A program made the position numbers and the translations under genes. The notes below the pieces were generated by a model, which searched no databases, was not told where the DNA came from, and saw nothing but the letters and a program-made list of their open reading frames with translations. A DNA stretch of 64,000 nt from a virus. The stretch is from positions 82,500 to 146,499 of the IMG/VR virus record IMGVR_UViG_3300019124_000038; one strand, 5' to 3'. Positions 1,748-60,825 of this stretch are shown here, in pieces. Numbering within the stretch: position 1 is the first letter of the stretch; every line of letters starts with the position of its first letter.

Positions 1748-2446
1748 GTGGCATTCATCTATATGAGCAACGGGGAGCCAGTAGAGATTGATGATGAGGA
1801 TTTCGCTTGGCTTAGTCAGTACAAATGGAGACCAGACAAAGATGGATATGCGCGAACGACTTGGAGGCAAGATGGGACACGGTATGACAGACGAATGCAC
1901 CGCATGATTTTAGATGCTTCTAGGGGTCAAATTGTAGATCATATCGACGGGAATCGCCTTAATAATCGCAAAAACAATCTTCGTTTTGTGAGTAGCCGAC
2001 AAAACTCACAAAACATGAAGAGACCGCGCACAAACACTACAGGCTATAAGGGTGTAGTGAAGCGCAGAGAAAATAGGTATGAAGCGAAAGTCACTCACGG
2101 CGGAGATTGTTTGTACTGCGGAACATACACGAATGCTCTTGCCGCCGCACATGCCTATAATTACAACGCTAAGTTATGCTTCGGTCAGTTCGCACAGCTC
2201 AACGAGGTCGAACCTTTGGATGATTGGAGAGACTTTCGGGTTGCGACTGTTCCGAAATCACAATGGCGTGGAGTGAGTGAAAAAGGCGATAAGTGGCAAG
2301 CATCTATTTTTCATGAAGGTCAAAGAGTCTATATTGGTCTATATGAGACAGAGATTCAGGCGGCTTTAGCCTATAACGCTAAGGCATCTGAGTTAAAAGG
2401 AGAAAGTGCTGTATTGAACGAAGTGGAGGATGATCTAGTATGCTAG
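1748..2446 (+). CDS. HNH homing endonuclease with two AP2 domains
   Basis: MHR..VDHIDGNRLNNRKNNLR HNH motif, followed by two AP2-like repeats (YKGV..AAHAYN; WRGV..AALAYN). Confidence 0.92.
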   Translation: MAFIYMSNGEPVEIDDEDFAWLSQYKWRPDKDGYARTTWRQDGTRYDRRMHRMILDASRGQIVDHIDGNRLNNRKNNLRFVSSRQNSQNMKRPRTNTTGYKGVVKRRENRYEAKVTHGGDCLYCGTYTNALAAAHAYNYNAKLCFGQFAQLNEVEPLDDWRDFRVATVPKSQWRGVSEKGDKWQASIFHEGQRVYIGLYETEIQAALAYNAKASELKGESAVLNEVEDDLVC

Positions 2447-3306
2447 GAATTGCATTCGCAGGAGGTGGAATCAGAGGAAGTGTCGAACTCGGCATCGTAA
2501 AGGCTTTCTACGAAGCGAACATTCGCCCAACAATCTTTACTGGTGCATCCGCTGGTTCAATTGTGGCAGGGCTACTAGCGATGGGCTACAGTCCTGACGA
2601 AGCATTCGCTGAGTTTTCAAAAGTTGGTAGTGATGTAATGGATGTAGCGTATGGTCATATCCTGTCTGGTCTCTTCTCGAAAGAACGAGTGCAAGGACTA
2701 GTTAGGGGTGACAGATTAGAGTCTATGTTGAACATGCTCTATTGCCGACGACAAATGCATGGGATTCCACAACCTAATAAGTTGGCAGTTGTTGCGACAG
2801 ACATCCAGACAGGCAAACAGATCATTTTTGCGAATCAAGACCCAGTAGACACAAGCATGATTGGTGATGATAATTTCGCATGGTTTAATCAGAGCACTTT
2901 GCCAATCAGTTTTGCTGTTCGCAGTTCATGCTCTTTCCCCGCCGTCTTCTTACCGAAGAGGTACATGGATTATGTATTAGTGGACGGGGGACTCACCAAC
3001 AATGTCCCATCGGATATTGCGCGGGCACTGGGAGCAACACAGGTCATTACTATTGATCTTGGCTACAACGGGGAGAAAGAGGAAGTAGGTGGTATCGCTT
3101 CAATCATCGGGAAAAGCATTTCAATTCTCATGGAGCGCGTAAACGATCATAATAACGATACACATGGAATCTATCTGAATCCTAGCGTGGATGATGTTGG
3201 AACATTTGATTTCTCGCAAATGGACGAACTCTACCAGATCGGCTATAGATACGGGAAAGCAATGATCCAAGAAGTTCGTGAGAAGCTAGTCCTTGCCACA
3301 GCCTAG
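2440..3306 (+). CDS. Patatin-like phospholipase
   Basis: GGGIRG oxyanion loop, GASAG nucleophile, DGG motif. Confidence 0.93.
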   Translation: MLGIAFAGGGIRGSVELGIVKAFYEANIRPTIFTGASAGSIVAGLLAMGYSPDEAFAEFSKVGSDVMDVAYGHILSGLFSKERVQGLVRGDRLESMLNMLYCRRQMHGIPQPNKLAVVATDIQTGKQIIFANQDPVDTSMIGDDNFAWFNQSTLPISFAVRSSCSFPAVFLPKRYMDYVLVDGGLTNNVPSDIARALGATQVITIDLGYNGEKEEVGGIASIIGKSISILMERVNDHNNDTHGIYLNPSVDDVGTFDFSQMDELYQIGYRYGKAMIQEVREKLVLATA

Positions 3307-3337
3307 CAATCTATGTTATACTACACCTATAAGATAA
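3293..3337 (+). promoter_or_regulatory. sigmaA-type promoter for the rSAM operon, with conserved downstream TATAAGATAA box
   Basis: TTGCCA-18-TATACT with extended TG, then N5-TATAAGATAA and SD GAGGAGG. Confidence 0.6.
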
Positions 3338-3352
3338 GAGGAGGAACACCGC

Positions 3353-3688
3353 ATGGTAACAATCGCAAATGGCGTTGTTTTCAATGACACCCATGTCGTA
3401 ACAACAACTGAGCTTTTACGGCTCTCCTTCTATGGGACAGGCAATGAGAATGTCATCATTGCCTTTGCTCCTAGTGTTGAGCGTCGTGGCTTGAAAGTTC
3501 TAAATGATTTCAAGCAAAACGGTACAGCAAAGATTCAAGTGTACAACAACGGTGTGCTTATCTTTGAAGATAGTGCCTATACAGATGTACAGTTCGAATA
3601 TGCCAAGAACGACACGCAAAATCTGGTAGAGCAACTGAACTTCACCAAGTCTGTTTCTTCGCTATCGACATCTACGGTCAGCGGGTAG
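3353..3688 (+). CDS. Hypothetical protein, first gene of rSAM operon
   Basis: Strong SD, 111 aa, beta-rich. Confidence 0.75.
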   Translation: MVTIANGVVFNDTHVVTTTELLRLSFYGTGNENVIIAFAPSVERRGLKVLNDFKQNGTAKIQVYNNGVLIFEDSAYTDVQFEYAKNDTQNLVEQLNFTKSVSSLSTSTVSG

Positions 3689-3697
3689 GTGTTATAG

Positions 3698-4354
3698 ATG
3701 CCAGCACAGAAAGGTACAGTTTGGATTACCGATTCTGAGTTTCATCTGGTAGGTGAGGACGGACTGCATTGGTACTATGTCGGCACTGATGCGGGTGCGG
3801 CTCCAGCGGATGCAGACCTTGGCTCTATTTGGGTTAACACCAATCTGTATTACATCGACGCTAACGCTAGGATTCGGTATATCCCAAGCGTAGTCATGAG
3901 CGCTGTGCAGGGTGTTGCTGGTAGTGCATGGATTAATAACCGTTTCCTCTACTGGCTAGATAACACAAAGACCATCCGATACGGTCATTCAGATGTCGCA
4001 GGATACAACGACTACGGCGATTCACGCGCTCACGGAGACACGGCATTCTATGACAGGGCACATACCGATTCCTATGGCACATATACAAACTGGGCGCATA
4101 GCGACACTCCTCACTCTGACAACGCACACGGTGACTGGCAACCATACTGCGACGTAACTGGTTGCTCGCCTACGCACGGTGATTATGGACATGGCGATAG
4201 TCCACATAGTGATAATCCGCATGTAGATTCACCAGCGCAATATTTCGATATTCCACACGGGGATACGCCACATAGCGACACCCCACCATACTCGGATTAC
4301 GGCGATTCTCGGGCACATGCAGACTACCCACGACAGGGAACGACAATTGCATAG
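3698..4354 (+). CDS. His/Tyr-x-Asp repeat protein; putative radical SAM substrate
   Basis: C-terminal ~115 aa holds 13 H-x-D and 6 Y-x-D motifs; N-terminal half has three G-x-x-W-[IV] repeats; lies directly upstream of the rSAM gene. Confidence 0.75.
   Translation: MPAQKGTVWITDSEFHLVGEDGLHWYYVGTDAGAAPADADLGSIWVNTNLYYIDANARIRYIPSVVMSAVQGVAGSAWINNRFLYWLDNTKTIRYGHSDVAGYNDYGDSRAHGDTAFYDRAHTDSYGTYTNWAHSDTPHSDNAHGDWQPYCDVTGCSPTHGDYGHGDSPHSDNPHVDSPAQYFDIPHGDTPHSDTPPYSDYGDSRAHADYPRQGTTIA
3986..4324 (+). repeat. Degenerate coding repeat of H-x-D / Y-x-D units
   Basis: HSD, HGD, HTD, HVD, HAD etc.; YxDYGDSRAHxD is duplicated near both ends of the array. Confidence 0.85.
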
Positions 4355-4365
4355 GAGGGGAAAGG

Positions 4366-5580
4366 ATGGCTAACGAAGTTAGACCTATGGGTGTAGCATG
4401 TAATCTTAAATGCACTTACTGCTATCAGAACCCTCTTCGGGATGCGGGGAATATCAATACTCTGTATGATCTCGAAAAGATCATCGAGCAACTTGACAAG
4501 ACCACATCAGAGTTTCACCTTTTCGGGGGTGAAGCTCTACTAATCCCGAAGAAAGATTTAGAGGTTCTTTGGTCATACGGATTAAAACGGTTCGGACAAA
4601 ACGGGATTCAAACGAACGGCGTACTTATCGACGCTGAACACGTAGAACTGTTCAAAAAATATAAAGTTTCTGTCGGCATCTCTATCGACGGCCCTGCCGA
4701 ACTCAACGACATGCGTTGGGCGGGTTCTCTCGACAAGACACGGGAAGCAACGCAAAAGATCATGGACAACATCGTTATGCTGGCTAATGAGGGTGTGCAG
4801 ATGGGCATTATCATCACCATCCACAAACTTAATGGTATGCCAGAACATCTTCCACGACTGCTCAATTTTATTCGTTGGCTCGGAGATATCGGCGTTAAAG
4901 GCGGCAACATTCACACCCTTGAAGTCGATAATGAGATTGTAAGGAACATGTTCTGTCTGACAGAAGAAGAAAATCTTTATGCGTTCCTGACTCTGGCGCA
5001 GTTCTTTCAGGAGAACCCTGATCTGTCATGGAATCCGTTCGGAGAAATATACAAGCTCCTCCAAGGTGATGACTACGGGGCTAACTGTAATTTTAAACGA
5101 TGTGATTCTATGAACACTCAGGCGGTCTATGGCATTGAAGGGAATGGCGCACTGTCTAACTGCTCTCGCACTAACAAAGAAGGTATCGACATGTATAAGG
5201 CAGACGATCATGGCTATGAGCGCTACATTTCGCTCTACCACACGCCGCCTGAGTATGGTGGCTGTAACGGTTGCCGTTTCTGGTCGATCTGCGGTGGATC
5301 ATGTCCCGGTGAAAGTGTTAATGGAGACTTTAGAAACAAAACAATACACTGTCAAACAATGAAGGGTATTCTCGGTTTCTACGAAGAAGTTCTGGAGAGC
5401 GAGGGTATTCAACCTATCACTAAGCATCCGAATCTCTACGAATACGAGAGAGAGATGTTGAAGTGGATGGCGCAAGGTCAGAACTGCTTGCTCAGTGATG
5501 CTATCAGGATGGTTGATGGTCGCGGGGAAAATGGCGAAATTCGCGTAGTTCCTGTGTACAGAAATGAAGGGAGGGAGTAA
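4366..5580 (+). CDS. Radical SAM/SPASM-domain peptide/protein maturase
   Basis: CNLKCTYC; FGGE, QTNG, SIDG; C-terminal C..C..CNGCRFWSICGGSCP..C SPASM cysteines. Confidence 0.92.
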   Translation: MANEVRPMGVACNLKCTYCYQNPLRDAGNINTLYDLEKIIEQLDKTTSEFHLFGGEALLIPKKDLEVLWSYGLKRFGQNGIQTNGVLIDAEHVELFKKYKVSVGISIDGPAELNDMRWAGSLDKTREATQKIMDNIVMLANEGVQMGIIITIHKLNGMPEHLPRLLNFIRWLGDIGVKGGNIHTLEVDNEIVRNMFCLTEEENLYAFLTLAQFFQENPDLSWNPFGEIYKLLQGDDYGANCNFKRCDSMNTQAVYGIEGNGALSNCSRTNKEGIDMYKADDHGYERYISLYHTPPEYGGCNGCRFWSICGGSCPGESVNGDFRNKTIHCQTMKGILGFYEEVLESEGIQPITKHPNLYEYEREMLKWMAQGQNCLLSDAIRMVDGRGENGEIRVVPVYRNEGRE

Positions 5581-6542
5581 TGATGGAACTGCTTGGCTTT
5601 GACATGCCGCCGTTTGCGCGTATTCAATATGTTACAGCAGGTGTCAAGAACGAGTGGGAGCCGCGTGTTGCAAGAGCCGCAAAAGCCTACTACGATCTGG
5701 AGCTTCTAACTGTCAAGCATGGAGTACGCGCATGTACTACACGTCATGTCTCTCCACAGAACTTGGAGTATGACTTACAGAACTTTGCGCGGCATGGTCT
5801 TGTGTGGCTTCCGATTCAACGAGTGGGAAGCTATCAGGGCTTTGCTCACAAGCATCCTCCTGTTCAGGAAGGTCGCCCTTGGGCTTGGTATGGTGTAGTG
5901 GCTCGTACAATGGAAGACGCTTTGAAGTTTGTCGAAGCATCGACGACAAAGTTCGACCACGATGTTCTTGGTCAGCTTCTTGGCTATCCCGACTGTTGTC
6001 GAAAGTTTTTTAATGAGGTGTGGGGGGCAGGGTATATTGACCCAATATGGCAACAAGCAGGAGGTGATCTTGAACACATGATACAGCATGAGGTCACGGA
6101 AGGTCAGGAAATGGTGCACTTCTCCAGTAGCGTCTCACATTTGACCGTATCCATGCTTCGTTATATTGGTGTGCGTATCGTACCGCATATCCCGTGCTCT
6201 GTAGGTTGCAAACATTCAGAGCATATTGCTCAGGCATGGTTTGAAGTCGGAGAGAAAGAGGAGGTAGAAGGTCTCCGTGATCTTGTAGCCCTCTTGACTC
6301 TGCCTACTGAATGGGACTGCCTGAGAGGGATTGCCGTTGTCTCTACACCTTTGTTCAAGATTCAGACGAACTCTATGACCACAACGAAGCGGTACATTGT
6401 TCGTAAGGATGGCGAATGGTATCCAGAAGAAGCACCAAGCGGCTTGAAGTTTCCTTGGCAAACGAAAGTAGGATTCGGATGTAATACCAGTATTCGCTCA
6501 CACGCCAAGTCTGATCTGATTCAAGTAGAGAGTACACAATGA
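5580..6542 (+). CDS. Cys/His-motif protein (DUF483-like), translationally coupled to the rSAM gene
   Basis: LGQLLGYPDCC and HIPCSVGC motifs; TAATG stop/start overlap. Confidence 0.6.
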   Translation: MMELLGFDMPPFARIQYVTAGVKNEWEPRVARAAKAYYDLELLTVKHGVRACTTRHVSPQNLEYDLQNFARHGLVWLPIQRVGSYQGFAHKHPPVQEGRPWAWYGVVARTMEDALKFVEASTTKFDHDVLGQLLGYPDCCRKFFNEVWGAGYIDPIWQQAGGDLEHMIQHEVTEGQEMVHFSSSVSHLTVSMLRYIGVRIVPHIPCSVGCKHSEHIAQAWFEVGEKEEVEGLRDLVALLTLPTEWDCLRGIAVVSTPLFKIQTNSMTTTKRYIVRKDGEWYPEEAPSGLKFPWQTKVGFGCNTSIRSHAKSDLIQVESTQ

Positions 6543-6712
6543 AACTTCTCCGCATATTGTTAGTGCCAATCACGTACCCGATTTTCGTGGTTCTCGTTAT
6601 TCTCGCGAATTTACTTATAGTAGTAACATTTGGAGATGTTCGTTGGGCATGGATATTCGCAGGATGGGTACAGGATTACTACTATTGGATAAGTGAATGG
6701 AGGTATATGTAG
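6539..6712 (+). CDS. Small membrane protein
   Basis: ATGA overlap; MKLLRILLVPITYPIFVVLVILANLLIVVTFG hydrophobic, 57 aa. Confidence 0.55.
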   Translation: MKLLRILLVPITYPIFVVLVILANLLIVVTFGDVRWAWIFAGWVQDYYYWISEWRYM

Positions 6713-6930: not shown

Positions 6931-6974
6931 TTGACAAATCTGTCACTAAAGTCTATAATATAACTATAAGATAA
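6931..6974 (+). promoter_or_regulatory. Consensus sigmaA promoter
   Basis: TTGACA-17-TATAAT then N5-TATAAGATAA. Confidence 0.9.
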
Positions 6975-7000: not shown

Positions 7001-7768
7001 ATGAAAACATCTGAAAGTCTAGTAAATTTCGCTCCTGCTTTTGTCGGATTTAGCTCAGAGGTAGAACGAATTGAGAAAGATCGTCGTAATCCGCACTTTA
7101 AGAATGACTACGCGACGCTTGACCAACTGATCGACGCAACACGTCCGATTCTTGCCAAATATGGTTTGGCTGTTACTCAGAGTGCGGCTGGAGATGAAAA
7201 CGGGAATGTCGTTCTTACAACTCGGGTAATGCATACCTCTGGCGAATGGCAAGAAACAGAGCCTCTTATCATGAAGCCTGTGAAAACAGACCCGCAAGGC
7301 ATGGGTTCCGCAACTACTTATGCGCGACGTTATCAATACGCGGCGGCTCTGAATCTGAGTACTGGCGAGGATGATGATGGCAACGACGCAAGCGGCATCG
7401 GTAATACGGATAAGACACCCGCTCCTGATGTAGAAACCCGTCGCCAAAATGCGCGACAAGAAGCCATGAATCGTCGCAACTCTGGAGGTAACAATTCCAC
7501 TCCTACCGCACCGACTACTCCAGCAGAAACGACCTCTGCAAGCATGGAGAGCACAGGCATGATTACTGATGGTCAAGTCAAGTCCATCAATAACATGACG
7601 AATGTACTTGACCGCAAGTACGGTGACGAACGCGTAGGTTCCCGACTGCTCGGCGACAAGCTGGCTGAATATGGCAAGGGCGATCTCTCCGAGCTAACCT
7701 TTGACGAAGCGGCTGGTATCCTGTCTACCTTCAACGGAGCAATGCGTAACAAACCGACCTTCAACTAG
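7001..7768 (+). CDS. erf: ERF-family ssDNA annealing protein
   Basis: NPHFKNDYATLD and QGMGSATTYARRY..EDDDG ERF motifs. Confidence 0.92.
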   Translation: MKTSESLVNFAPAFVGFSSEVERIEKDRRNPHFKNDYATLDQLIDATRPILAKYGLAVTQSAAGDENGNVVLTTRVMHTSGEWQETEPLIMKPVKTDPQGMGSATTYARRYQYAAALNLSTGEDDDGNDASGIGNTDKTPAPDVETRRQNARQEAMNRRNSGGNNSTPTAPTTPAETTSASMESTGMITDGQVKSINNMTNVLDRKYGDERVGSRLLGDKLAEYGKGDLSELTFDEAAGILSTFNGAMRNKPTFN

Positions 7769-17609: not shown

Positions 17610-18555
17610 CCATTTTCTTGATGAGTATGCCGCTACAGAACGTTTGATTCGTGAATGGGAGAAATACGGTAGGCTGGTGATCGCGTATGACTTCGACAAC
17701 ACAGTTTACGACTATCACGGCGGCGGCTACTCTTACTCGATGGTAATTGATCTCCTCCGTAAGTGCAAGGAAGTTGGAGCTTACTTCATATGCTTCACGG
17801 CGCGGGAAAATGACGAGCTAGACTTTGTGTGGAAGTATCTGAAAGACAACAATATTCCTGTGGACAAGCTCAATGATAATCCTGACTTCCTACCCTTTAA
17901 CGGTCGAAAAATCTACTACAATATCCTCTTGGATGATCGGGCTGGACTCGCTCAGGCATACAACATGCTGAGTTACGCCGCGACACACATGAAGGCAAAA
18001 AGGAGCGTGAAGCGATTGGGTGAAGAATGGCGACCAATAGAAGGGTACGAAGGTCTATACGAAGTATCCAATCTTGGTCGTGTAAAATCACTTGCAAGAA
18101 CAATAATTCGTAGTGATGGTCGTAGGTGCGTGGTAACAGAGAAAATCTTGACCGAGCGTGTCAACGACAGAGGATACATAGAGATCAAGCTGTCAAGGTT
18201 AGGGTCTAGCACCTACAAGAAACTACACAGAATCGTGGCTACGGCATTCTTGGACAATCCCGAAAACAAGCCCGAGGTCAATCACAAAGATGGCAACAAG
18301 AAGAACAACCAAGCTGAGAACCTTGAATGGGCTACGCACTCCGAGAATATGCAACACGCTTTCGCAAATGGACTACATTCCCACCAAGGAGATCGGAGTT
18401 CGACCAAGTTACTAACCGAGTCAGATGTTCTGTCAATACGGGAGCGTCAGGCGAACGGTGAAAAGCGCGGCGAAGTGTATGCCGACTACGCTGAAGTGAT
18501 TTCCATTCATGGTTTTAAAGCAATCTGGTATCGCCATACTTGGAAGCATATCTGA
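17602..18555 (+). CDS. HAD-like phosphatase fused in frame to NUMOD4-HNH endonuclease
   Basis: YDFDNT..TAR..K..LLDD, then WRPIEGYEGLYEVSNLGRVKS and HRIVA..VNHKDGNKKNN..NLEW. Confidence 0.85.
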   Translation: MLDHFLDEYAATERLIREWEKYGRLVIAYDFDNTVYDYHGGGYSYSMVIDLLRKCKEVGAYFICFTARENDELDFVWKYLKDNNIPVDKLNDNPDFLPFNGRKIYYNILLDDRAGLAQAYNMLSYAATHMKAKRSVKRLGEEWRPIEGYEGLYEVSNLGRVKSLARTIIRSDGRRCVVTEKILTERVNDRGYIEIKLSRLGSSTYKKLHRIVATAFLDNPENKPEVNHKDGNKKNNQAENLEWATHSENMQHAFANGLHSHQGDRSSTKLLTESDVLSIRERQANGEKRGEVYADYAEVISIHGFKAIWYRHTWKHI

Positions 18556-18568
18556 GGAGGTAATGAAC

Positions 18569-20092
18569 ATGGGTAAATTCGTAACTCCCGCTTCATTGTT
18601 GTGCGATTTTTATAAGGTAAACCACCGTCAGCAATATCCGAAAGGCACTACTCGTGTGTACTCGAACTGGACAGGGCGGCTTTCCCGCATTGAAGGCGTA
18701 GACAAGGTAGTGATGTTCGGTCTGCAAGCCTTCATCAAGGAATACCTGATCGACTACTTCAATGAACACTTCTTCGCTCGTCCGCACATTGAAGTAGTAT
18801 ATGAGTATTATCGTTACATGCGGTTCACTTTAGGTATTGAGAATCCCGATGCTTCCCATATTGCCGCCTTGCATGACCTCGGCTATCTGCCGCTCCGTAT
18901 TGAGGCGGTGAAAGAAGGTACGCTCGTACCGATCAAGGTTCCGATGCTTACTATCGAGAATACTCATGACGACTTCTTTTGGCTGACGAATTACGTTGAA
19001 ACCCTGCTGTCGTCTGAAATCTGGCAACCGATGACCATTGCGACCATTGCCCTGCAATATCGCAAACTGTTGGAAGACTATGCGGAGCAAACTGGTGCGG
19101 ATAAGTCTGCTGTTATCTTTCAAGGTCACGACTTCTCCATGCGCGGCATGGGCGGTCTGAAAGTGGCGGAACACGCAAATGCAGGTCACTTGCTCTCCTT
19201 TGTGGGAACCGATACTGTTCCTGCTATCGCCCATATGGAATCGTATTACAATGCTAACATTGAGACCGAGATGGTTGGCACTTCCATTCCTGCTACTGAG
19301 CATTCTGTTATGTGCGCTGGCGGGCGGGAGAACGAAGGGGAGACCATTCGCCGCCTGATCGAAGATGTATACCCGAAAGGCTTTGTGTCTATTGTCTCTG
19401 ACACTTGGGACTTGTGGAATGCAATCGACGTTCACTATCGTGGTCTTAAAGATAAAATCATGTCCCGTGACGGTCGAGTAGTTATTCGTCCTGATTCTGG
19501 CGACCCCGTGAAGATTCTGGTAGGCGACCCCGAAGCTACCGACTATCGTGCACGTAAAGGTGTCATTGAACTCCTGTGGGATATCTTCGGCGGCACGGTC
19601 ACTGAGAAGGGCTACAAGCAACTTGACTCGCATATCGGCGTAATCTACGGAGATGCGATCAGCCTTGACCGTGCAAAGCGTATCCTCGAAGGTCTGAAAT
19701 TTAAGGGGTTCGCATCTACCAACATCGTGTTTGGCATCGGTTCCTTTACCTACCAGTATCAAACTCGTGATACCTTCGGTTTTGCCCTGAAAGCTACTTA
19801 TGTAAAGATTGATGGCGAAGAACATTTCATCATGAAAAACCCAATCACCGACTCTGGCTTCAAGAAATCGGCAACTGGCAAGCTGGCGGTCTGCAAGTCT
19901 CACTTTAATCCGCATAATGGTCGTATAACTTCAAAGCCTGAGATCATTCTGATTGACAGCCTAACAGAAGAAGAGCTTATGAATATCAACTACAACGATC
20001 ACAATATGCTCGAAGATGTGTTCGTGGACGGCAAGCTGGTGCGCGATCAGTCCCTCGCAGAAATCCGCGCTTTGCTGGAGTCGCAACTATAA
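18569..20092 (+). CDS. nadV: Nicotinamide phosphoribosyltransferase-like (NAMPT; candidate Namat)
   Basis: DFYK, HDFSMRG, PATEHSVM, SIVSDTWD, IRPDSGDP, YGDAI, GIGS. Confidence 0.93.
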   Translation: MGKFVTPASLLCDFYKVNHRQQYPKGTTRVYSNWTGRLSRIEGVDKVVMFGLQAFIKEYLIDYFNEHFFARPHIEVVYEYYRYMRFTLGIENPDASHIAALHDLGYLPLRIEAVKEGTLVPIKVPMLTIENTHDDFFWLTNYVETLLSSEIWQPMTIATIALQYRKLLEDYAEQTGADKSAVIFQGHDFSMRGMGGLKVAEHANAGHLLSFVGTDTVPAIAHMESYYNANIETEMVGTSIPATEHSVMCAGGRENEGETIRRLIEDVYPKGFVSIVSDTWDLWNAIDVHYRGLKDKIMSRDGRVVIRPDSGDPVKILVGDPEATDYRARKGVIELLWDIFGGTVTEKGYKQLDSHIGVIYGDAISLDRAKRILEGLKFKGFASTNIVFGIGSFTYQYQTRDTFGFALKATYVKIDGEEHFIMKNPITDSGFKKSATGKLAVCKSHFNPHNGRITSKPEIILIDSLTEEELMNINYNDHNMLEDVFVDGKLVRDQSLAEIRALLESQL

Positions 20093-29260: not shown

Positions 29261-30736
29261 CTAGGAGGGGGCAGGATAGTATTTATAGGCTGAATCCCAG
29301 TACCAAGTGTATCCATGATCATGGAAGAGGAACGAAGTCTCCCCATTGATGATACTGACAGCATACACCGTCAAAAATTCATCATAAAGAACTTTGGTGC
29401 TATCAATGGGATGTACTTTAAACATGGTTTTCATCCTCCTCATTGTCATGCTGTTCAGACATAAACTCCAAAGATTCACCACAGACCCCACAGTCGTAGC
29501 AGTAGACATAAAATTCATCAATCATTCCTTCGTCGTCAACATCAGTCTCTTTGTATTGACCTGAGCTAGTCAGTTGATCTTGGGGGTGCGGACATTCTCT
29601 GCGTAGGCGACTAATTTCTTGCTCGATCTCGTAGAGACTCTTTTGAATAGGCATGATCTGTCTTTCCAGTCTTTCCTTTTGTCCTTTTAGAACCTTTAAG
29701 CGTTGTGTGATTGGATGCGTCACTGGCACATCATCTCCTTTCGCTTCGTCTTTTCTTGTCAAGAACTTGCTCATGGTTAGATTCTTTTAGCTCCAGTTTC
29801 CAAGCCAACGAGCCTTCTTCCGTTAGTTCCTTGTATCTCCTATTCCAGTCTCCTTTATCGGCGAAGCTATCCATTCCTAGATCGCCTAAGCCGATAAATG
29901 TTTGGTACACGACAACGTACTTCTTTTCTTTTTGCATATTACAGCTTCTTTCCTTTGCGATATTCAAGAAACTTTTTGGCAAGAGGAGTTAGTTCATAGT
30001 CATCATGCCAAGCTCCGTCAATATAGGAAAGAAAGCCATTAGCGATAAGTGATTCTGCTTCTGATTCTCGAAAGCGTCCAGAGTCATCGAGTCGATCTTC
30101 CTCTAGGTATCTAGTCCGCCACTCAATCATGCGATTCTGGTCTACGAATTGAAGGATTTCAATTTCACGCTCGTTAAGCTGGTATTGCATGATTACACCA
30201 GAGCCGTCAGTGAGAAATCCAGTTGTCACTTTCATTAAGATCATCGCTCCTTTGAGTTTAGAGTTGCACGATACGTGTTATCGTTCGCAGTCTTCGAGCT
30301 TCAAGCTCTGCGGCATTGAAATCATAATTGCACTCTTTGTAGATGCGGTTCGCTTCGGGGTATGTGAGCTTGTATTGTGTCACCAAGAAGAAGATGTTGC
30401 GTTCGTGCTCTCGGTACTGTTCTGGTATCATAGTGGATACCTCCCTTATTTAGATTGGAAGATGGCGTTCATCCATGCTTTAACAGCTTCCCTGTCATCG
30501 GTGTCATATGGACATTTGTAGAAGTAAACTGCTTTCGTCATGTCTGCTTCTACATTAAACTGATTGAACAGGAAGTGTTCCTTATGTTCGCCCATAAGCG
30601 TACCAGAATCAACTCGCTTGCCTTCTAGGGTAACGCCAACAACCTTTACGACTCCACCGTCATGAAAAACCGCAAGAGCTTCATTGAGAGTAATCGGATA
30701 GTATTGACGCTCTTTGGGATTAAAATTTTGTCTCAT
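29261..30736 (-). other. Inverted cluster of short hypothetical CDSs (29261-29425, 29418-29774, 29731-29937, 29939-30244, 30258-30431, 30446-30736)
   Basis: Tightly packed minus-strand ORFs with SDs, downstream of a minus-strand promoter. Confidence 0.6.
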
Positions 30737-30750
30737 TTTGACATCCCCTT

Positions 30751-30795
30751 TCGTCTTATACGTGTATTATATCACAAGGAGGAGAGTGTATGCAA
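30751..30795 (-). promoter_or_regulatory. sigmaA promoter
   Basis: TTGCAT-18-TATAAT then N5-TATAAGACGA. Confidence 0.7.
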
Positions 30796-30797
30796 CC

Positions 30798-31790
30798 ATG
30801 TTTACACCTGAAAGACGTGTCATCAAGAAGCATGATAGGTCTTCAATTCGTGTTACAGTCGAATATGTTCAAGAATTAGTGCGGTCATTGCCCAATCGAG
30901 ATTTTGAAATCCTGCACTGGCTATTTAAACGCCCGTTTATGACGGGTGAGCAGATCGAGATGCTGGTATTCGGAGACCTGAAACCGTCTAGTCGCCGCGA
31001 GAAGGCGAATCAACGCATCCGCAAGCTCTACCATAGCCACTGTATCGACCGCTGGTTCCCGCCCGTTGCAGAGGGTGCAGGAAGCTCCAAACAACATCTA
31101 GTTCTTGACCGTGCGGGTCTCTTGGCTCTTGCCTTGAAGCGCGGCATCGACCCATCCGATGATCGCATAAAAAAATGGCGTAAGCGAAACCATATTCCCC
31201 AGAACTATCAGCACACTTTGAAAATTCAGGATTTCTACGGTCTGCTCCATCTGTTTAGTAGACAGCTCGAATGCGGGGAGATCATTCGGTGGGAGTGGGA
31301 AGACAAAGCGAAGATTAAATTTGCCATGCGGGAGGATGGAAGAAATCGCAACGTAGAGATCAAGCCAGATGCGTTCTGCATCTATAAGTACAACACGCAG
31401 GGCGGGTTCAAGATGTTTTACCTCGAAGCTGATAACGCAACAGAAGACATGGATGTGTTAGAGACAAAGATTAGACGCTACAAGGCTATGTACGAAAGCG
31501 GGGAGTGGCGAGACAGACAGTGGGCTCGGGCAACGCAAGGAAGAATGTTCCCTGCCGTCCTCTTTCTCTTTCATGATCTAGGGCAAGCAAAAGAATTGCA
31601 TAAATTCGCCAAACGGCAGAACACGCCAGTTCGTTTCCTCTTTACCGCTTATGACCAGTTGATTCGGCAGGAGGTCAAGGAGTATCATAGTAGAGGTGGC
31701 AAGACCATGAAGGTTCCACAAGAGCAACACATTAGACTCTTTGAGCCGATCTTCTTGTCAAGTAAAGAGGAAGGAGAAGTACCACTATGA
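30798..31790 (+). CDS. Replication-relaxation (Replic_Relax) family protein, putative relaxase
   Basis: N-terminal wHTH (MTGEQI..RIRKL), HTL, IKPDA, FYLEADNATE..KIRRY. Confidence 0.8.
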   Translation: MFTPERRVIKKHDRSSIRVTVEYVQELVRSLPNRDFEILHWLFKRPFMTGEQIEMLVFGDLKPSSRREKANQRIRKLYHSHCIDRWFPPVAEGAGSSKQHLVLDRAGLLALALKRGIDPSDDRIKKWRKRNHIPQNYQHTLKIQDFYGLLHLFSRQLECGEIIRWEWEDKAKIKFAMREDGRNRNVEIKPDAFCIYKYNTQGGFKMFYLEADNATEDMDVLETKIRRYKAMYESGEWRDRQWARATQGRMFPAVLFLFHDLGQAKELHKFAKRQNTPVRFLFTAYDQLIRQEVKEYHSRGGKTMKVPQEQHIRLFEPIFLSSKEEGEVPL

Positions 31791-50613: not shown

Positions 50614-51741
50614 TTAGAGTGCAGAAATAGACTCTTTCCCTTCGTTTACTTCCTGAGCTTTCTTCATGTAGCCTTTCTTGAAGCCATTCTCGAAGCCGAT
50701 GCTGTAAATCTCTTCGATCTCCTGCTCTCGCTTGTAGTAGCCTTCACTCTGCCCCATAGCGAACGCCCGCGCCTTTTCAGACTCGATCAGGTCATGCAGG
50801 GAGATCGCATCGTCAGCACCGATCTGATCTTCGATCTTCTTTAACACAGACGGAAACTTCGTCACATGTGCCAGCACATCAAACCCATTCGGTAGGTCGC
50901 CTTTCAGCGGGTCGTAGCCGCCGTATGCGCTGAGAGCTTTGAAGTTCGTATCAAAGCTGATCGGCTCTTGCTTTAACTGCTCCTCTGCTTTGTCAGCATT
51001 GGTATCGAAGAAATAAATTGCTTGTCTTTTCGGCTCGATGAAGGTCAGATCAGCAGGATTCACCGCCGCTATTGGAACTTCCGCATTGGCGCAAGAGATG
51101 CCGTAGGTGAGATATGACTGCATCGACGCAAAGATGATGATGTTCAGGCTGTCGATGTAAGTCATGATGATCGGCATGGTATCGCGGACAATCCACATTT
51201 GGGACGGGAAAAACTTGCGGATGAATGCGAAAGTGAATGCTCCCTCCAGATCGTTTGCTACACTTGCCATCTTTTGAGCTGTCAATCGAAGACCCATGCG
51301 GTCTACCAGTCGGAAGATAACTTCAGAGTCAACTTCACCAGCTCGTCCCATATTATAGCGGGTGAACAGACGATCATCATTATCAATCCACCCATTGTGA
51401 ATGCCTACAGTAGAGTAAGTTTCAATCGGGTGGTTGTTCACGTTGTTGTCGGGAGAGCCTTGCGTAGCGGCTCGGGTGTGGAGCAGAATGTTTACAGTGT
51501 CATTTGTGATGTTTTCTTCCACCCAGTCACTCCAAGATGCGGTGCTAGTCAGTTCTTCGCCAGTGATTTGATACTTGAAAACAGCCGTGGTTCGGTCTTT
51601 TTTCCCGACCGCGATACCAGCCGCATCTCCGCCACGAGCATCGTTTGCTACCAAAATTCCTTCTGCCAGCTTACGGATATAAGCCAGCTCCTGCTTAGTA
51701 CGTTCCTGCGGGAACATCAAGATACCGCCGATTCCACACAT
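50614..51741 (-). CDS. Class II (Ntn) glutamine amidotransferase
   Basis: MCGIGG N-terminal Cys, RG.DAAG, HTRAAT, NNHP, HNG, VDSE. Confidence 0.9.
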   Translation of the reverse strand: MCGIGGILMFPQERTKQELAYIRKLAEGILVANDARGGDAAGIAVGKKDRTTAVFKYQITGEELTSTASWSDWVEENITNDTVNILLHTRAATQGSPDNNVNNHPIETYSTVGIHNGWIDNDDRLFTRYNMGRAGEVDSEVIFRLVDRMGLRLTAQKMASVANDLEGAFTFAFIRKFFPSQMWIVRDTMPIIMTYIDSLNIIIFASMQSYLTYGISCANAEVPIAAVNPADLTFIEPKRQAIYFFDTNADKAEEQLKQEPISFDTNFKALSAYGGYDPLKGDLPNGFDVLAHVTKFPSVLKKIEDQIGADDAISLHDLIESEKARAFAMGQSEGYYKREQEIEEIYSIGFENGFKKGYMKKAQEVNEGKESISAL

Positions 51742-59571: not shown

Positions 59572-60825
59572 TTACACAGTAACCCCATCAGCAGGATTGG
59601 TCTTGCCTTCTTCGTCTTTATTGCGGCCAAGATGCTCATTCAGCATCTTCTCGTAGCAACCTCCGCAGACTTGATGCTCGTCGTCCACGCCGTTGTTCCA
59701 CGCTCCAGCTTTGTCGTCCTCGGTCAGTTCCTTGTCGCATTCGGAGCAATCAACTTTGCCATTGCTACCAGTAGCTCCTGCTGTTTCTTCCAATGTAAAG
59801 ATCGTGATTTCGTTCGTCTGCTCGTCCAGAATGCCCTCGATAACCCGCCCCGTACTCGTCTTCGTCGTAGTAGTCCCACAAGTCGAGTTGTTTCCCGTAC
59901 CGCATCTCGACCCCGTTCCCCCACGACCCCATGCGTTTCCCGTCGAAGAATAGGAGCTGGTAGTGTAGTTCGTGAGCGTTTCGATGCGCTTCTGCTCGGA
60001 GATCGCATCCAGTACATTATCTGCATTTGCATCGACCGTCAAGTAGTGGTGTGTTTTGACGGTGATATATCTCACGGTCAGCCCGATTTCGATACCAAAT
60101 GCTTTGAGTGCGCGAGAGAGGGACATGAACGCCTTCTTAATGTACTTCTCGACCGAGTTGAAGATGATGATACCAGCTTCTTCCCAGTAAGCCATGTCAA
60201 TCGGACGTTCATGACCTTTGAACAGGTGGAGCATGGTCGGCGTTTGCTTGTGAACGAATGCCAGAGCCGCGAACATTTTCAGACGTTCGTTTTTGTCGCC
60301 GTGACCCTGTTCCAGTACGCGCTTCACAATGTCGTAGGTGAAGTTCGTTTGGTCTTTCCCGTACAGATTCAGCATTTGGTAGATGACCTCGGAGTCAACT
60401 TCACCAATGCGTTTGAAGTCGTTCTCGTAGATTTTGAACAGTTCATCATCATTGCCCGTGCGGATGGAACCGTTATGAATACCGACGACGCAACCGATAT
60501 CGAACGGGTGGTTGTTGTCGTTGTTATCCGCCGTGCCTTTCGTAAGCTGGCGAGTGTGGGAGATGATGGTAGCCGTCTTACGACCGTCGATAGCGTCGAT
60601 GATTTGACGGTAAGTAGCGTCATTCGTAGTCATGTCCCACGCCGTTCCTTTTGCCTTGTGGAAGTCATAGGAGCCATCTCGACGGTGAACAGAGATGCCA
60701 GTCGCATGTTCACCGCGATCTTGGGTTTCGATCAGCAGTTCGTCGAACAGATGGCGGATAGCCCTCATCGTATTCGCATCACGTTTAACGCCCTTCAAGA
60801 AAGTCATGCCGTTGATTCCACACAT
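59572..60825 (-). CDS. Class II (Ntn) glutamine amidotransferase with C-terminal zinc ribbon
   Basis: MCGING, RG.HATG, HTR.LT, NNHPF, HNG, VDSE; CSEC..CGGC. Confidence 0.9.
   Translation of the reverse strand: MCGINGMTFLKGVKRDANTMRAIRHLFDELLIETQDRGEHATGISVHRRDGSYDFHKAKGTAWDMTTNDATYRQIIDAIDGRKTATIISHTRQLTKGTADNNDNNHPFDIGCVVGIHNGSIRTGNDDELFKIYENDFKRIGEVDSEVIYQMLNLYGKDQTNFTYDIVKRVLEQGHGDKNERLKMFAALAFVHKQTPTMLHLFKGHERPIDMAYWEEAGIIIFNSVEKYIKKAFMSLSRALKAFGIEIGLTVRYITVKTHHYLTVDANADNVLDAISEQKRIETLTNYTTSSYSSTGNAWGRGGTGSRCGTGNNSTCGTTTTKTSTGRVIEGILDEQTNEITIFTLEETAGATGSNGKVDCSECDKELTEDDKAGAWNNGVDDEHQVCGGCYEKMLNEHLGRNKDEEGKTNPADGVTV

Follow-up and report, generated by a model that had tools for sequence, protein, structure and literature searches.

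A conserved phage cassette of a repeat protein, a radical SAM/SPASM enzyme and a DUF483-like partner: a candidate maturation system for tail-fibre arrays

The stretch of viral DNA analysed here (the window; 64,000 nucleotides, positions 82,500 to 146,499 of the 146.5-kb IMG/VR virus record IMGVR_UViG_3300019124_000038) encodes a 218-amino acid (aa) protein with a C-terminal array of aromatic-x-Asp/Asn triplets, followed on the same strand by a radical S-adenosylmethionine (rSAM)/SPASM enzyme and a DUF483-like protein. These three genes (array protein, enzyme and DUF483-like protein) are a conserved unit. The array protein is very probably the substrate of the rSAM enzyme, as a reading of the window made from its letters (the sequence-only reading) had proposed, because the two are linked at more than 100 loci, because bacterial relatives of the enzyme adjoin leader-bearing HxD precursors, and because most of the enzymes carry HxD tails of their own. 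The evidence leans slightly towards a fuller explanation, in which the three genes form a maturation system that modifies the triplets of a hairpin needle. The cassette and the parts of the array protein are as follows.

3698..4354, + strand: array protein, 218 aa
3698..3994, + strand: N-terminal beta domain of the array protein, predicted to be folded, aa 1-99, built from three repeats of the form G-[ST]-x-W-[IV] that start at aa 6, 42 and 75
3986..4324, + strand: array of 21 aromatic-x-D/N triplets, aa 97-209 (13 H, 7 Y/F and 1 YTN), with mirror-symmetric spacing
4325..4354, + strand: C-terminal tail, Y-P-R-Q-G-T-T-I-A and stop codon, which fits the family ending H-x-D-x-P-x-x-V-G
4366..5580, + strand: rSAM/SPASM enzyme, 404 aa, predicted array maturase
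5580..6542, + strand: DUF483-like partner, 320 aa, overlapping the rSAM stop codon by 1 nt and translationally coupled to it

The cassette in phages and its array protein

Relatives of the unit came from protein-level searches only; a blastn search of the whole unit against 50,697 phage records gave no match. Among phage records, the array protein matched only the Thermus phages phiMa and Cumys, with 29-30% identity over 97-100% of the length. In these phages the same three genes stand adjacent, co-oriented and in the same order (Cumys_13/12/11 and phiMa_29/28/27), and all three are homologous to those of the window. The Thermus phage rSAMs are 47-51% identical to the window enzyme (47-48% over 95% of the length for Cumys and phiMa), a homologous DUF483-like protein comes next, and the array proteins likewise consist of three N-terminal repeats (G-S-x-W in phiMa_29) and an HxD array. 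The Thermus array proteins are richer in motifs, with 53-54 HxD (53 in phiMa_29) compared to 13 in the window protein; the Thermus rSAMs have an HxD tail, whereas the window enzyme lacks one; and the Thermus cassettes directly follow baseplate and tail-collar-fibre genes, unlike the cassette in the window. A 2024 paper had named this trio the “rSAM module” in Cumys, phiMa and some prophages and guessed at a role in DNA modification, with no mention of the repeats (10.1101/2024.08.14.607894; PMC11437467). The proposal that the window holds a new system therefore stands for the repeats, and not for the module as such. A search of the literature on HxD repeats, DUF483 and rSAM enzymes with tail fibres found nothing beyond the Cumys paper.

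Evidence that the three genes belong together came from three sets of neighbourhoods. All seven metagenomic homologues of the array protein are followed by the rSAM and then by the DUF483-like gene. When IMG/VR was scanned for the DUF483 motif G-x-L-L-G-[YF]-P-x-C-C, 108 viral contigs were confirmed; a search of viral contigs with the single DUF483-like protein had found nothing, so an alignment-based pattern was needed, and a scan of genome contigs with a single protein returned one weak, unrelated rSAM (L091). In 69 of the 90 rSAM loci reached from DUF483, an ORF (open reading frame) with 9-93 HxD ends a median of 21 nt before the rSAM gene. The rest include eight loci with the order array, DUF483, x, rSAM, three loci (phiLo among them) with an array nearby on the other strand, two loci cut by the contig end, and L012, which has an H-S-N array. 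A scan seeded with rSAM motifs alone gave 37 loci, with DUF483 directly downstream in 37/37 and an Hx[DN]-rich ORF abutting the rSAM start in all 36 loci that were readable. The sequence-only reading had named these neighbourhoods as the place where its proposal could fail, should rSAM homologues usually occur without an aromatic-x-Asp repeat neighbour; the pairing in every readable locus is the opposite of that outcome.

The 156-kb phage of locus L012 (the same contig as L095) has a duplicated cassette at L012:4159-10909, with two rSAMs and two DUF483-like genes. In addition to the H-S-N array, it encodes two phrog_1843 proteins with W-H-V-D-G...H-I-H-R, which may be 2-oxoglutarate/Fe oxygenase-like.

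The array of the window protein is far denser in motifs than its composition predicts. The protein has 13 HxD (aa 97-207), 7 YxD (6 of them C-terminal) and 1 FxD (aa 117), and the C-terminal 122 aa hold 20 aromatic-x-D triplets compared to 4.6 +/- 1.7 expected; not one of 20,000 composition-preserving shuffles reached 20. A recount thus agrees with the earlier tally of 13 HxD, 6 YxD and 1 FxD in the C-terminal part, and the reported duplication of Y-x-D-Y-G-D-S-R-A-H-x-D was found at aa 103 and aa 198. Tyr or Phe occupies the first position in 8/21 triplets, and with 20 D, 4 R and no K the array has a strongly acidic composition. In comparison with a 60%-identical homologue, motif positions 1 and 3 are kept by class in 21/21 triplets, while position 2 is identical in 12/21 and the other array positions in 21/52. 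Judged by this pattern of conservation, the motif is the unit under selection in the array. Across 90 distinct array ORFs, position 1 is H in 77%, Y in 12%, F in 7% and W in 4%, position 3 is D in 78% and N in 22%, and the commonest motif period is 5. The motif had been described as aromatic-x-Asp; Asp does occur at position 3, but so does Asn, and the motif is better written aromatic-x-D/N. The presence of Phe, Trp and Asn at motif positions would suit C-H/aromatic chemistry better than pure metal binding.

The N-terminal part of the array protein has the appearance of a folded domain. AlphaFold2 (AF2) models aa 1-99 as all-beta with a predicted local distance difference test (pLDDT) score above 90, and the domain is kept in 15 aligned homologues (alignment A2). 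The view that this half is folded, and is not a leader, is in agreement with the model. A fold search with the array-protein model gave a best match of only Z 3.7, to the beta-prism II lectin LLPA, and in a viral library the model matched the phiMa homologue only. When seven long array proteins were compared with Pfam, the single result was a Gly-rich domain in one protein. At the other end of the chain, D209 and P211 are invariant in alignment A2, and the last ~10 residues have a pLDDT of about 79, consistent with the chain coming back to the N-terminal domain.

Between these two ends, aa 100-208 have a pLDDT below 50, and the spacing of the motifs is the source of a structural proposal. In the window protein, 20/21 motif starts pair to the sum 304 (p<5e-4 compared to shuffled gap order), and mirror-symmetric spacing is independently significant in P0008, P0006, P0010, L066, L012 and phiMa_29. 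The only two indels that separate the window protein from its 60%-identical homologue are gaps of 2 residues that follow aa 142 and aa 163, and these two sites are exact opposites at register sum 306. The mirror-symmetric spacing and the compensating indels, a signal of the covariation type, suggest a long antiparallel hairpin, in which His(a) would face Asp(a'+2) and vice versa. The array is accordingly drawn as a predicted two-stranded hairpin with a turn near aa 153 (C151...C156), and in the predicted register each rung would group two aromatic/His and two Asp/Asn side chains.

The enzyme, its partner and their bacterial relatives

The 404-aa protein belongs to the radical SAM superfamily, with a match to PF04055 (E 1e-16, 61.9 bits compared to a cut-off of 29.5), a match to phrog_1802 (E 2e-34), and a CxxxCxxC motif at C12/C16/C19 that is invariant in 17 relatives (alignment A3). 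A GGE motif lies at aa 54-56. Eight further cysteines are invariant in the same alignment (C241, C246, C266, C300, C303, C309, C313 and C329), and C300-C313 have the SPASM-type spacing CX2CX5CX3C. Assignment to the SPASM subgroup follows from this cysteine pattern and from the alignment with the anaerobic sulfatase-maturating enzyme (anSME): the family profile aligns with anSME (PDB 4K36) over the full length (positions 2-343), SPASM included, with E 2e-24. The second profile match is the triceptide synthase ChlB (E 8e-17). Like anSME, the window enzyme starts directly at CxxxCxxC, with no N-terminal recognition domain.

The best NCBIfam matches of the enzyme are anSME, DynA, AmcB, YhhB and PapB, with GrrM/OscB added when relatives were searched; AmcB, DynA, YhhB and GrrM are cyclophane-forming maturases. 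All of these fall far under their cut-offs, which argues that the enzyme is a new family within the peptide- and protein-modifying SPASM group. The scores compared to the cut-offs are 74/425 bits for AmcB, 68/445 for YhhB, 53/450 for XyeB, 50/310 for GrrM and 37/370 for FxsB, and the fused relatives described below score like the window enzyme against the curated maturase families. The model of the anaerobic sulfatase maturase (TIGR03942) gave 76.4 bits compared to 349, and the unit has neither a sulfatase gene nor a C/S-x-P-x-R motif. HxsB and HxsC were absent from the best 25 of 64 NCBIfam matches for the window enzyme, and the HxsB model scored 29.5 bits on a relative compared to a cut-off of 370.

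At least two HxD motifs are present in the C-terminal tail of 61 of the 76 distinct enzymes of the family, although not in the tail of the window enzyme. The run may read P-H-G-D-x-P-H-G-D-H-T-D, and it is seen in L005:8759-10072, L009:5103-6302 and 59 others; it is a candidate substrate mimic, self-modification site or metal site. A separate peculiarity of the family is an intein (LAGLIDADG/Hint) inside the CxxxCxxC motif of two independent rSAM genes (L007:8682-10895 and L035:2662-5178). The database representatives P0048, P0077, P0082 and P0167 (734-777 aa) look likewise intein-interrupted.

The 320-aa protein encoded after the enzyme is, at best, a distant DUF483 member. PF04467 gave 20.5 bits with the window protein, compared to a cut-off of 25; several close homologues have a precomputed PF04467 match, and the protein of locus L075 scored 25.7 bits. 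A control search with PF04467 found its matches in M. jannaschii and S. acidocaldarius. The search for homologues of the DUF483-like protein returned 36, and its near-invariant residues include C139, C140 and C210. An AF2 model with a pLDDT of 89 had no Foldseek match in the PDB at E<=0.001, and a profile search of PDB sequences gave no match.

Additional evidence on the role of this protein came from gene fusions. A full-database search with the rSAM returned 335 clusters at E<=1e-30, and among the top 150 of these, 36 cluster representatives are natural rSAM-DUF483 fusions. The DUF483-like protein is strictly adjacent to the rSAM, translationally coupled to it and often fused with it, which argues for a subunit of the maturase. 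Roughly half of the phage loci have DUF483 fused to a class I SAM methyltransferase. Further additions to cassettes include a glycosyltransferase family 2 (GT2) domain fused to the DUF483-like protein, or a second small rSAM (239 aa) with a GT2 glycosyltransferase (L022:5101-6864 or L134:7353-8938); such second rSAM and GT2 genes hint at further tailoring of the array.

The bacterial relatives suggest what the substrate motif may be. Fused rSAM-DUF483 enzymes in bacteria adjoin leader-bearing precursors of 55-59 aa with a C-terminal run of HxD. At locus L135, a 55-aa ORF (L135:4497-4664; ...HSDTHTDSHVDSHNDSHSD...) ends in five tandem HxD and is accompanied by an M42/M20 peptidase and an ATP-binding cassette (ABC) transporter. 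At L132, two ORFs of 57 and 59 aa (the latter at L132:1613-1792) have a leader-like N-terminus and end in ...HGDFGHGDFGHADR (the HxD run of the L132 precursor reads ...HGDFGHGDFGHAD), and their neighbours are an HExxH protein and a methyltransferase. At L130, a convergent protein with 39 HxD lies beside the fused enzyme. All three fused or triple-fused enzymes with a readable DNA context (L132, L135 and L130) thus adjoin HxD substrates, while a fourth fusion, P0051, has PqqD-domain proteins on its flanks. No NCBIfam model recognizes the bacterial precursors or their enzyme. These bacterial clusters look like gene clusters for peptides made on ribosomes and modified post-translationally (RiPPs). 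HxD is likely to be the substrate motif, since the precursors join a leader to an HxD ending and come with a peptidase and an ABC exporter. The enzyme of L130 (2962-5433) is a triple fusion of rSAM, DUF483 and methyltransferase, and its gene lies beside a DUF4062/NACHT nucleoside triphosphatase gene, a possible defence-island context.

Genomic setting in relatives and in this phage

In phages of ~40-60 kb, the cassette closes the tail-fibre module. Cumys_13 comes after baseplate and tail-collar-fibre genes, and the neighbours at L007, L037, L045 and L016 match PHROG tail-fibre families. At many loci the array is itself the C-terminal part of a protein of 700-1,471 aa. A 1,245-aa prophage tail protein of L134 has 186 motifs. 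The sequence-only reading had preferred a modified protein to a secreted peptide, and this is the better of the two because the arrays of relatives belong to tail-fibre proteins.

A second link to fibres is a sequence ending. In 34 distinct cases, the product of the ORF just upstream of a short-type array gene has the C-terminus [LIV]P[VI]Gx[DN]x[WYF]A, and in P0010 and P0007 this segment is fused ahead of the three-repeat domain. The window genome has exactly one ORF with such an ending (genome 51897-52997; ...YRMVLPVGANMYAT, ...VLPVGANMYAT). This ORF closes the tail module, with the holin and endolysin genes coming next, and lies ~33 kb upstream of the cassette. Given that the only ORF with this ending is the last tail-module gene, docking of the 218-aa protein on the 366-aa fibre protein that it encodes is given roughly an even chance. 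A virion role in this phage is a matter of inference only, because the cassette is ~33 kb from the fibre gene and outside the tail module, and the proposal that the array protein is part of the virion here is evenly balanced.

Within the window, the cassette is embedded in a local unit with three further features.

3293..3322, + strand: promoter-like site, TTGCCA-18-TGnTATACT (consensus scan, 10/12 matches with TG; a pattern match only)
3353..3688, + strand: 111-aa ORF, first gene of the local unit, outside the conserved cassette
6539..6712, + strand: 57-aa hydrophobic ORF, overlapping the DUF483-like stop codon by 4 nt, local

The five ORFs that had been picked out from the sequence are all present on the + strand at the positions listed here and above, and a GGAGG ribosome-binding site precedes the ATG at 3353. 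The promoter ascribed to the unit is a consensus match only. Of the five-gene unit as it had been described, the array, rSAM and DUF483-like genes are conserved, but the 111-aa and 57-aa ORFs are not. Searches of Pfam, PHROG and NCBIfam with the 111-aa ORF gave no match, and among the fetched loci its sole homologue is in L004, the closest relative; L011 and L023 have ~100-aa ORFs in the corresponding place, which were rejected as relatives (BLASTP E 14 and 63). The 57-aa ORF has no homologue in any fetched locus, and its position is taken by an unrelated small membrane ORF in L011 and by a VbhA-like ORF in L004. As had been remarked, the unit has no peptidase or exporter (Pfam, PHROG and NCBIfam scans).

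Several features of the surroundings were noted in passing. A patatin-like phospholipase gene (2440-3306) lies directly upstream of the unit, an arrangement shared with L004 and not seen elsewhere. A perfect sigma-70 consensus promoter, TTGACA-17-TATAAT, at 6931-6959 is directly 5' of an Erf-like recombinase gene (7001-7768); this promoter starts the next unit (erf) and so marks the end of the rSAM unit. The gene content of the window includes TerL-like, erf, ribonucleotide reductase (RNR) and HNH genes. Auxiliary metabolic genes encode a nicotinamide phosphoribosyltransferase (window 18509-20092; phrog_448, E 1e-195) and two glutamine-amidotransferase-like proteins (window 50614-51741 and 59572-60825, both on the - strand). 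A replication-initiation-by-nicking/relaxase-like protein (phrog_9381) is encoded at window 30714-31790.

Proposed mechanism, alternatives and known systems

In the proposed mechanism, the rSAM, together with the DUF483-like protein to which it is fused in many genomes, would take a hydrogen atom from every triplet in the 218-aa protein and install a covalent modification there. The single most likely modification would be a bond from the aromatic ring of residue 1 to the beta-carbon of the Asp/Asn at residue 3, with up to about 20 modifications per chain. A bond from the aromatic residue to Cbeta of Asp/Asn is the most economical proposal because His-C2 to Cbeta bonds have been proven for the HTK, HAA and HNR motifs (HtkB, HaaB and YhhB), and because ChlB acts on Y-D-R (PMC11499958). 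By analogy with these enzymes, triceptide-type chemistry is given a little less than an even chance. The array would fold into a long two-stranded hairpin in which triplets face those of the returning strand (His opposite Asp), with both ends anchored on the N-terminal beta domain. The end product would be a rigid, acidic and possibly metal-binding needle, which would form the distal part of the tail fibre in most phages; in this phage the needle would probably dock on the fibre protein ending ...VLPVGANMYAT. The most specific version of this proposal, in which the phage rSAM makes the fibre tip a covalent poly-cyclophane hairpin needle and the same enzyme pair makes exported HxD RiPPs in bacteria, is tentative and falls well short of an even chance.

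Several observations weigh against this mechanism. AF2 provides no model of the array, so we infer the hairpin from spacing statistics only. The Pfam SPASM model was unmatched at E<0.01 in the window enzyme, and since the enzyme stays under the curated cut-offs of all named cyclophane-synthase families, a reaction other than the one proposed is conceivable. The best fold matches of the DUF483-like protein in VIA-align are weak (2guk, Z 7.8; NleE, Z 5.5). The 366-aa fibre candidate has no PHROG match, and docking of the N-terminal domain on an ...LPVGxDxWA ending is conjecture. The cassettes of the window phage, L004, L011, L023 and L012 lie amid genes for replication and nucleotide metabolism, not amid tail genes.

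In one alternative the substrate is the same and the chemistry is different, such as cross-strand His-Asp staples that would zip up the hairpin in a nested, sactipeptide-like topology, epimerisation, or a carbon-bridged or methylated product. Nested crosslinks with a constant sum are typical of sactipeptides from SPASM enzymes, and the mirror register of the array sets His directly opposite Asp of the other strand. The enzyme lies outside all curated cyclophane families, about half of the phage loci have the methyltransferase fusion, and the additional gene of some cassettes, for an oxygenase-like phrog_1843 protein, a second rSAM or a glycosyltransferase, could, like the fused methyltransferase, carry out extra steps. 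There is also a precedent in HxsA, for which the rSAM-dependent change is +8 Da and not -2 Da (PMC13128918). While these data are consistent with a different reaction, the short bacterial precursors have 3-5 tandem HxD and no returning strand, which argues that the minimal unit is the triplet itself. Moreover, the window cassette has no methyltransferase, oxygenase or second rSAM, and H/Y/F/W at position 1 with D/N at position 3 fit the aromatic-X-X logic of triceptides (PMC11499958). A different chemistry is therefore somewhat unlikely. A needle that binds metal with no covalent change, the rSAM/DUF483 pair acting elsewhere or only aiding folding, would fit with His and Asp as classic metal ligands, with a predicted rung that has 2 His and 2 Asp on the same face, and with the strong acidity of the array. 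HxH motifs on the up-and-back strands of the T4 gp37 tip hold seven Fe ions, and such motifs are found again in other fibres (PMC11705849, citing Bartual 2010). A needle of this kind would leave unexplained the strict linkage and the fusions to an rSAM of the peptide-modifying type, as well as leader-bearing short precursors with exporter and peptidase, which are not fibre parts; Phe, Trp and Asn are frequent at motif positions, and Tyr or Phe takes more than a third of the first positions in the window array (8/21). This alternative is improbable, and metal binding is in any case compatible with modification.

Two further alternatives concern where the product acts. It may not be a virion part in this phage, and may instead be an intracellular or released factor (a metal chelator, an anti-defence factor or a host-takeover factor) made early in infection. 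The location of the cassette between the patatin-like lipase gene and erf, amid RNR, methylase and glycosyltransferase genes, is in keeping with such a role, as is the proximity of the L004, L011 and L023 cassettes to genes for a primase, a deoxynucleoside monophosphate kinase and a Ro-like RNA-binding protein. The array proteins of the window clade are the shortest (176-228 aa) and stand alone, the bacterial relatives are exported peptides, and an HxS protein of the host, matured by rSAM, keeps phage DNA from entering (PMC13128918), so that such repeats can act in phage-host conflict. Nevertheless, fibre-linked proteins have the same three-repeat N-terminal domain and C-terminal ending (alignment A2), a single fibre gene of the genome retains the ...VLPVGxxxYAT ending, which is found ahead of array genes elsewhere, and the unit has no signal peptide, exporter or protease. 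A non-virion product is thus doubtful. The remaining alternative is the one proposed for Cumys and phiMa, that the module modifies phage DNA, with the repeat protein as an accessory. It was based on the proximity, in some cyanobacteria, of rSAM/DUF483 homologues to genes for deazapurine DNA modification (10.1101/2024.08.14.607894), and the methyltransferase fusions and the position of big-phage cassettes amid nucleotide-metabolism genes could be read in the same way. The SPASM enzymes nearest anSME and the cyclophane synthases act on peptides and proteins, however, and an array this acidic is an unlikely DNA binder. Neither arrays embedded in tail-fibre proteins, nor bacterial versions with leader peptides, peptidase and exporter, nor enzymes with HxD tails would be expected of such a module, and this alternative is very improbable.

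For the preferred mechanism, modification of the triplets by the rSAM/DUF483 pair, there are parallels with several known systems. Triceptide synthases (HtkB, HaaB, YhhB, ChlB, XyeB, GrrM/OscB and FxsB) are rSAM/SPASM enzymes with no N-terminal RiPP recognition element (RRE), as is the window enzyme, and their substrates likewise have repeated three-residue motifs that start with an aromatic residue, His included. The presence of an aromatic-X-X substrate beside the enzyme, which is characteristic of triceptides, is also seen here, with 21 triplets in the adjacent ORF and the pairing kept across loci. Important differences are that triceptide systems are not known to have an obligatory, often fused DUF483-like partner, that residue 3 of the array motif is Asp/Asn, and that the predicted substrates of the phage and bacterial enzymes can be as short as 55-aa peptides or as long as 1,471-aa fibre proteins, with up to 186 motifs. 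Of the solved structures, the one nearest to the enzyme over its full length, SPASM included, is anSME (PDB 4K36), which acts on a full-length protein, at a Cbeta hydrogen in a short motif, with no leader or RRE. Unlike the substrates of anSME, Asp/Asn cannot become formylglycine by the same oxidation.

In the HXS antiphage system, the His-x-Ser effector HxsA is matured by the rSAMs HxsB/HxsC with HxsD (PMC13128918). This system also has an rSAM-matured protein with His-x-small-polar repeats, an accessory partner of the rSAM, and a role at the phage-cell interface. It is a host defence, however, that relies on two rSAMs and on N-terminal processing and export, with five basic HxS repeats and a peptidoglycan-binding domain, whereas the window system is phage-encoded and has one rSAM, an acidic HxD/N array and no export signal. 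A Pfam scan of the unit found no peptidoglycan-binding domain. The needle of T4 gp37 has short His triplets on an ascending and a returning strand, as predicted for the paired strands of the array. The gp37 motif is HxH compared to HxD/N with frequent Tyr/Phe/Trp in the array, which sets the array apart from the gp37 type; no sequence or fold similarity was found between the two proteins, and the gp37 needle needs chaperones and no rSAM. The system would act in the manner of the triceptide- and HXS-type maturation of repeats by rSAM enzymes, with membership in neither family. Four elements are new: a motif of the form aromatic-x-D/N, a DUF483 partner that is obligatory, the predicted hairpin ladder, and the probable use on virion fibre proteins.

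If the proposed mechanism is correct, the peptide chemistry of rSAM enzymes would gain a substrate motif, aromatic-x-Asp/Asn, and an obligatory partner, the DUF483-like protein, both of them new. The mechanism would mean that RiPP-type chemistry is applied to large viral structural proteins, with tens to nearly two hundred crosslinks per chain, and that for the first time a structural protein of a virion has a post-translational modification installed by an rSAM enzyme. One chemistry would then serve both a pathway to natural products and a pathway to virus structure, and the short bacterial precursors are a tractable route to it. The mechanism would also explain a conserved, unannotated gene trio of more than 100 phage genomes, among them those of cultivable Thermus phages. 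Heavily crosslinked fibre tips that resist proteases and heat could influence how hosts are recognized and how stable the phages are in hot springs and soils, and they could serve protein engineers as a scaffold.

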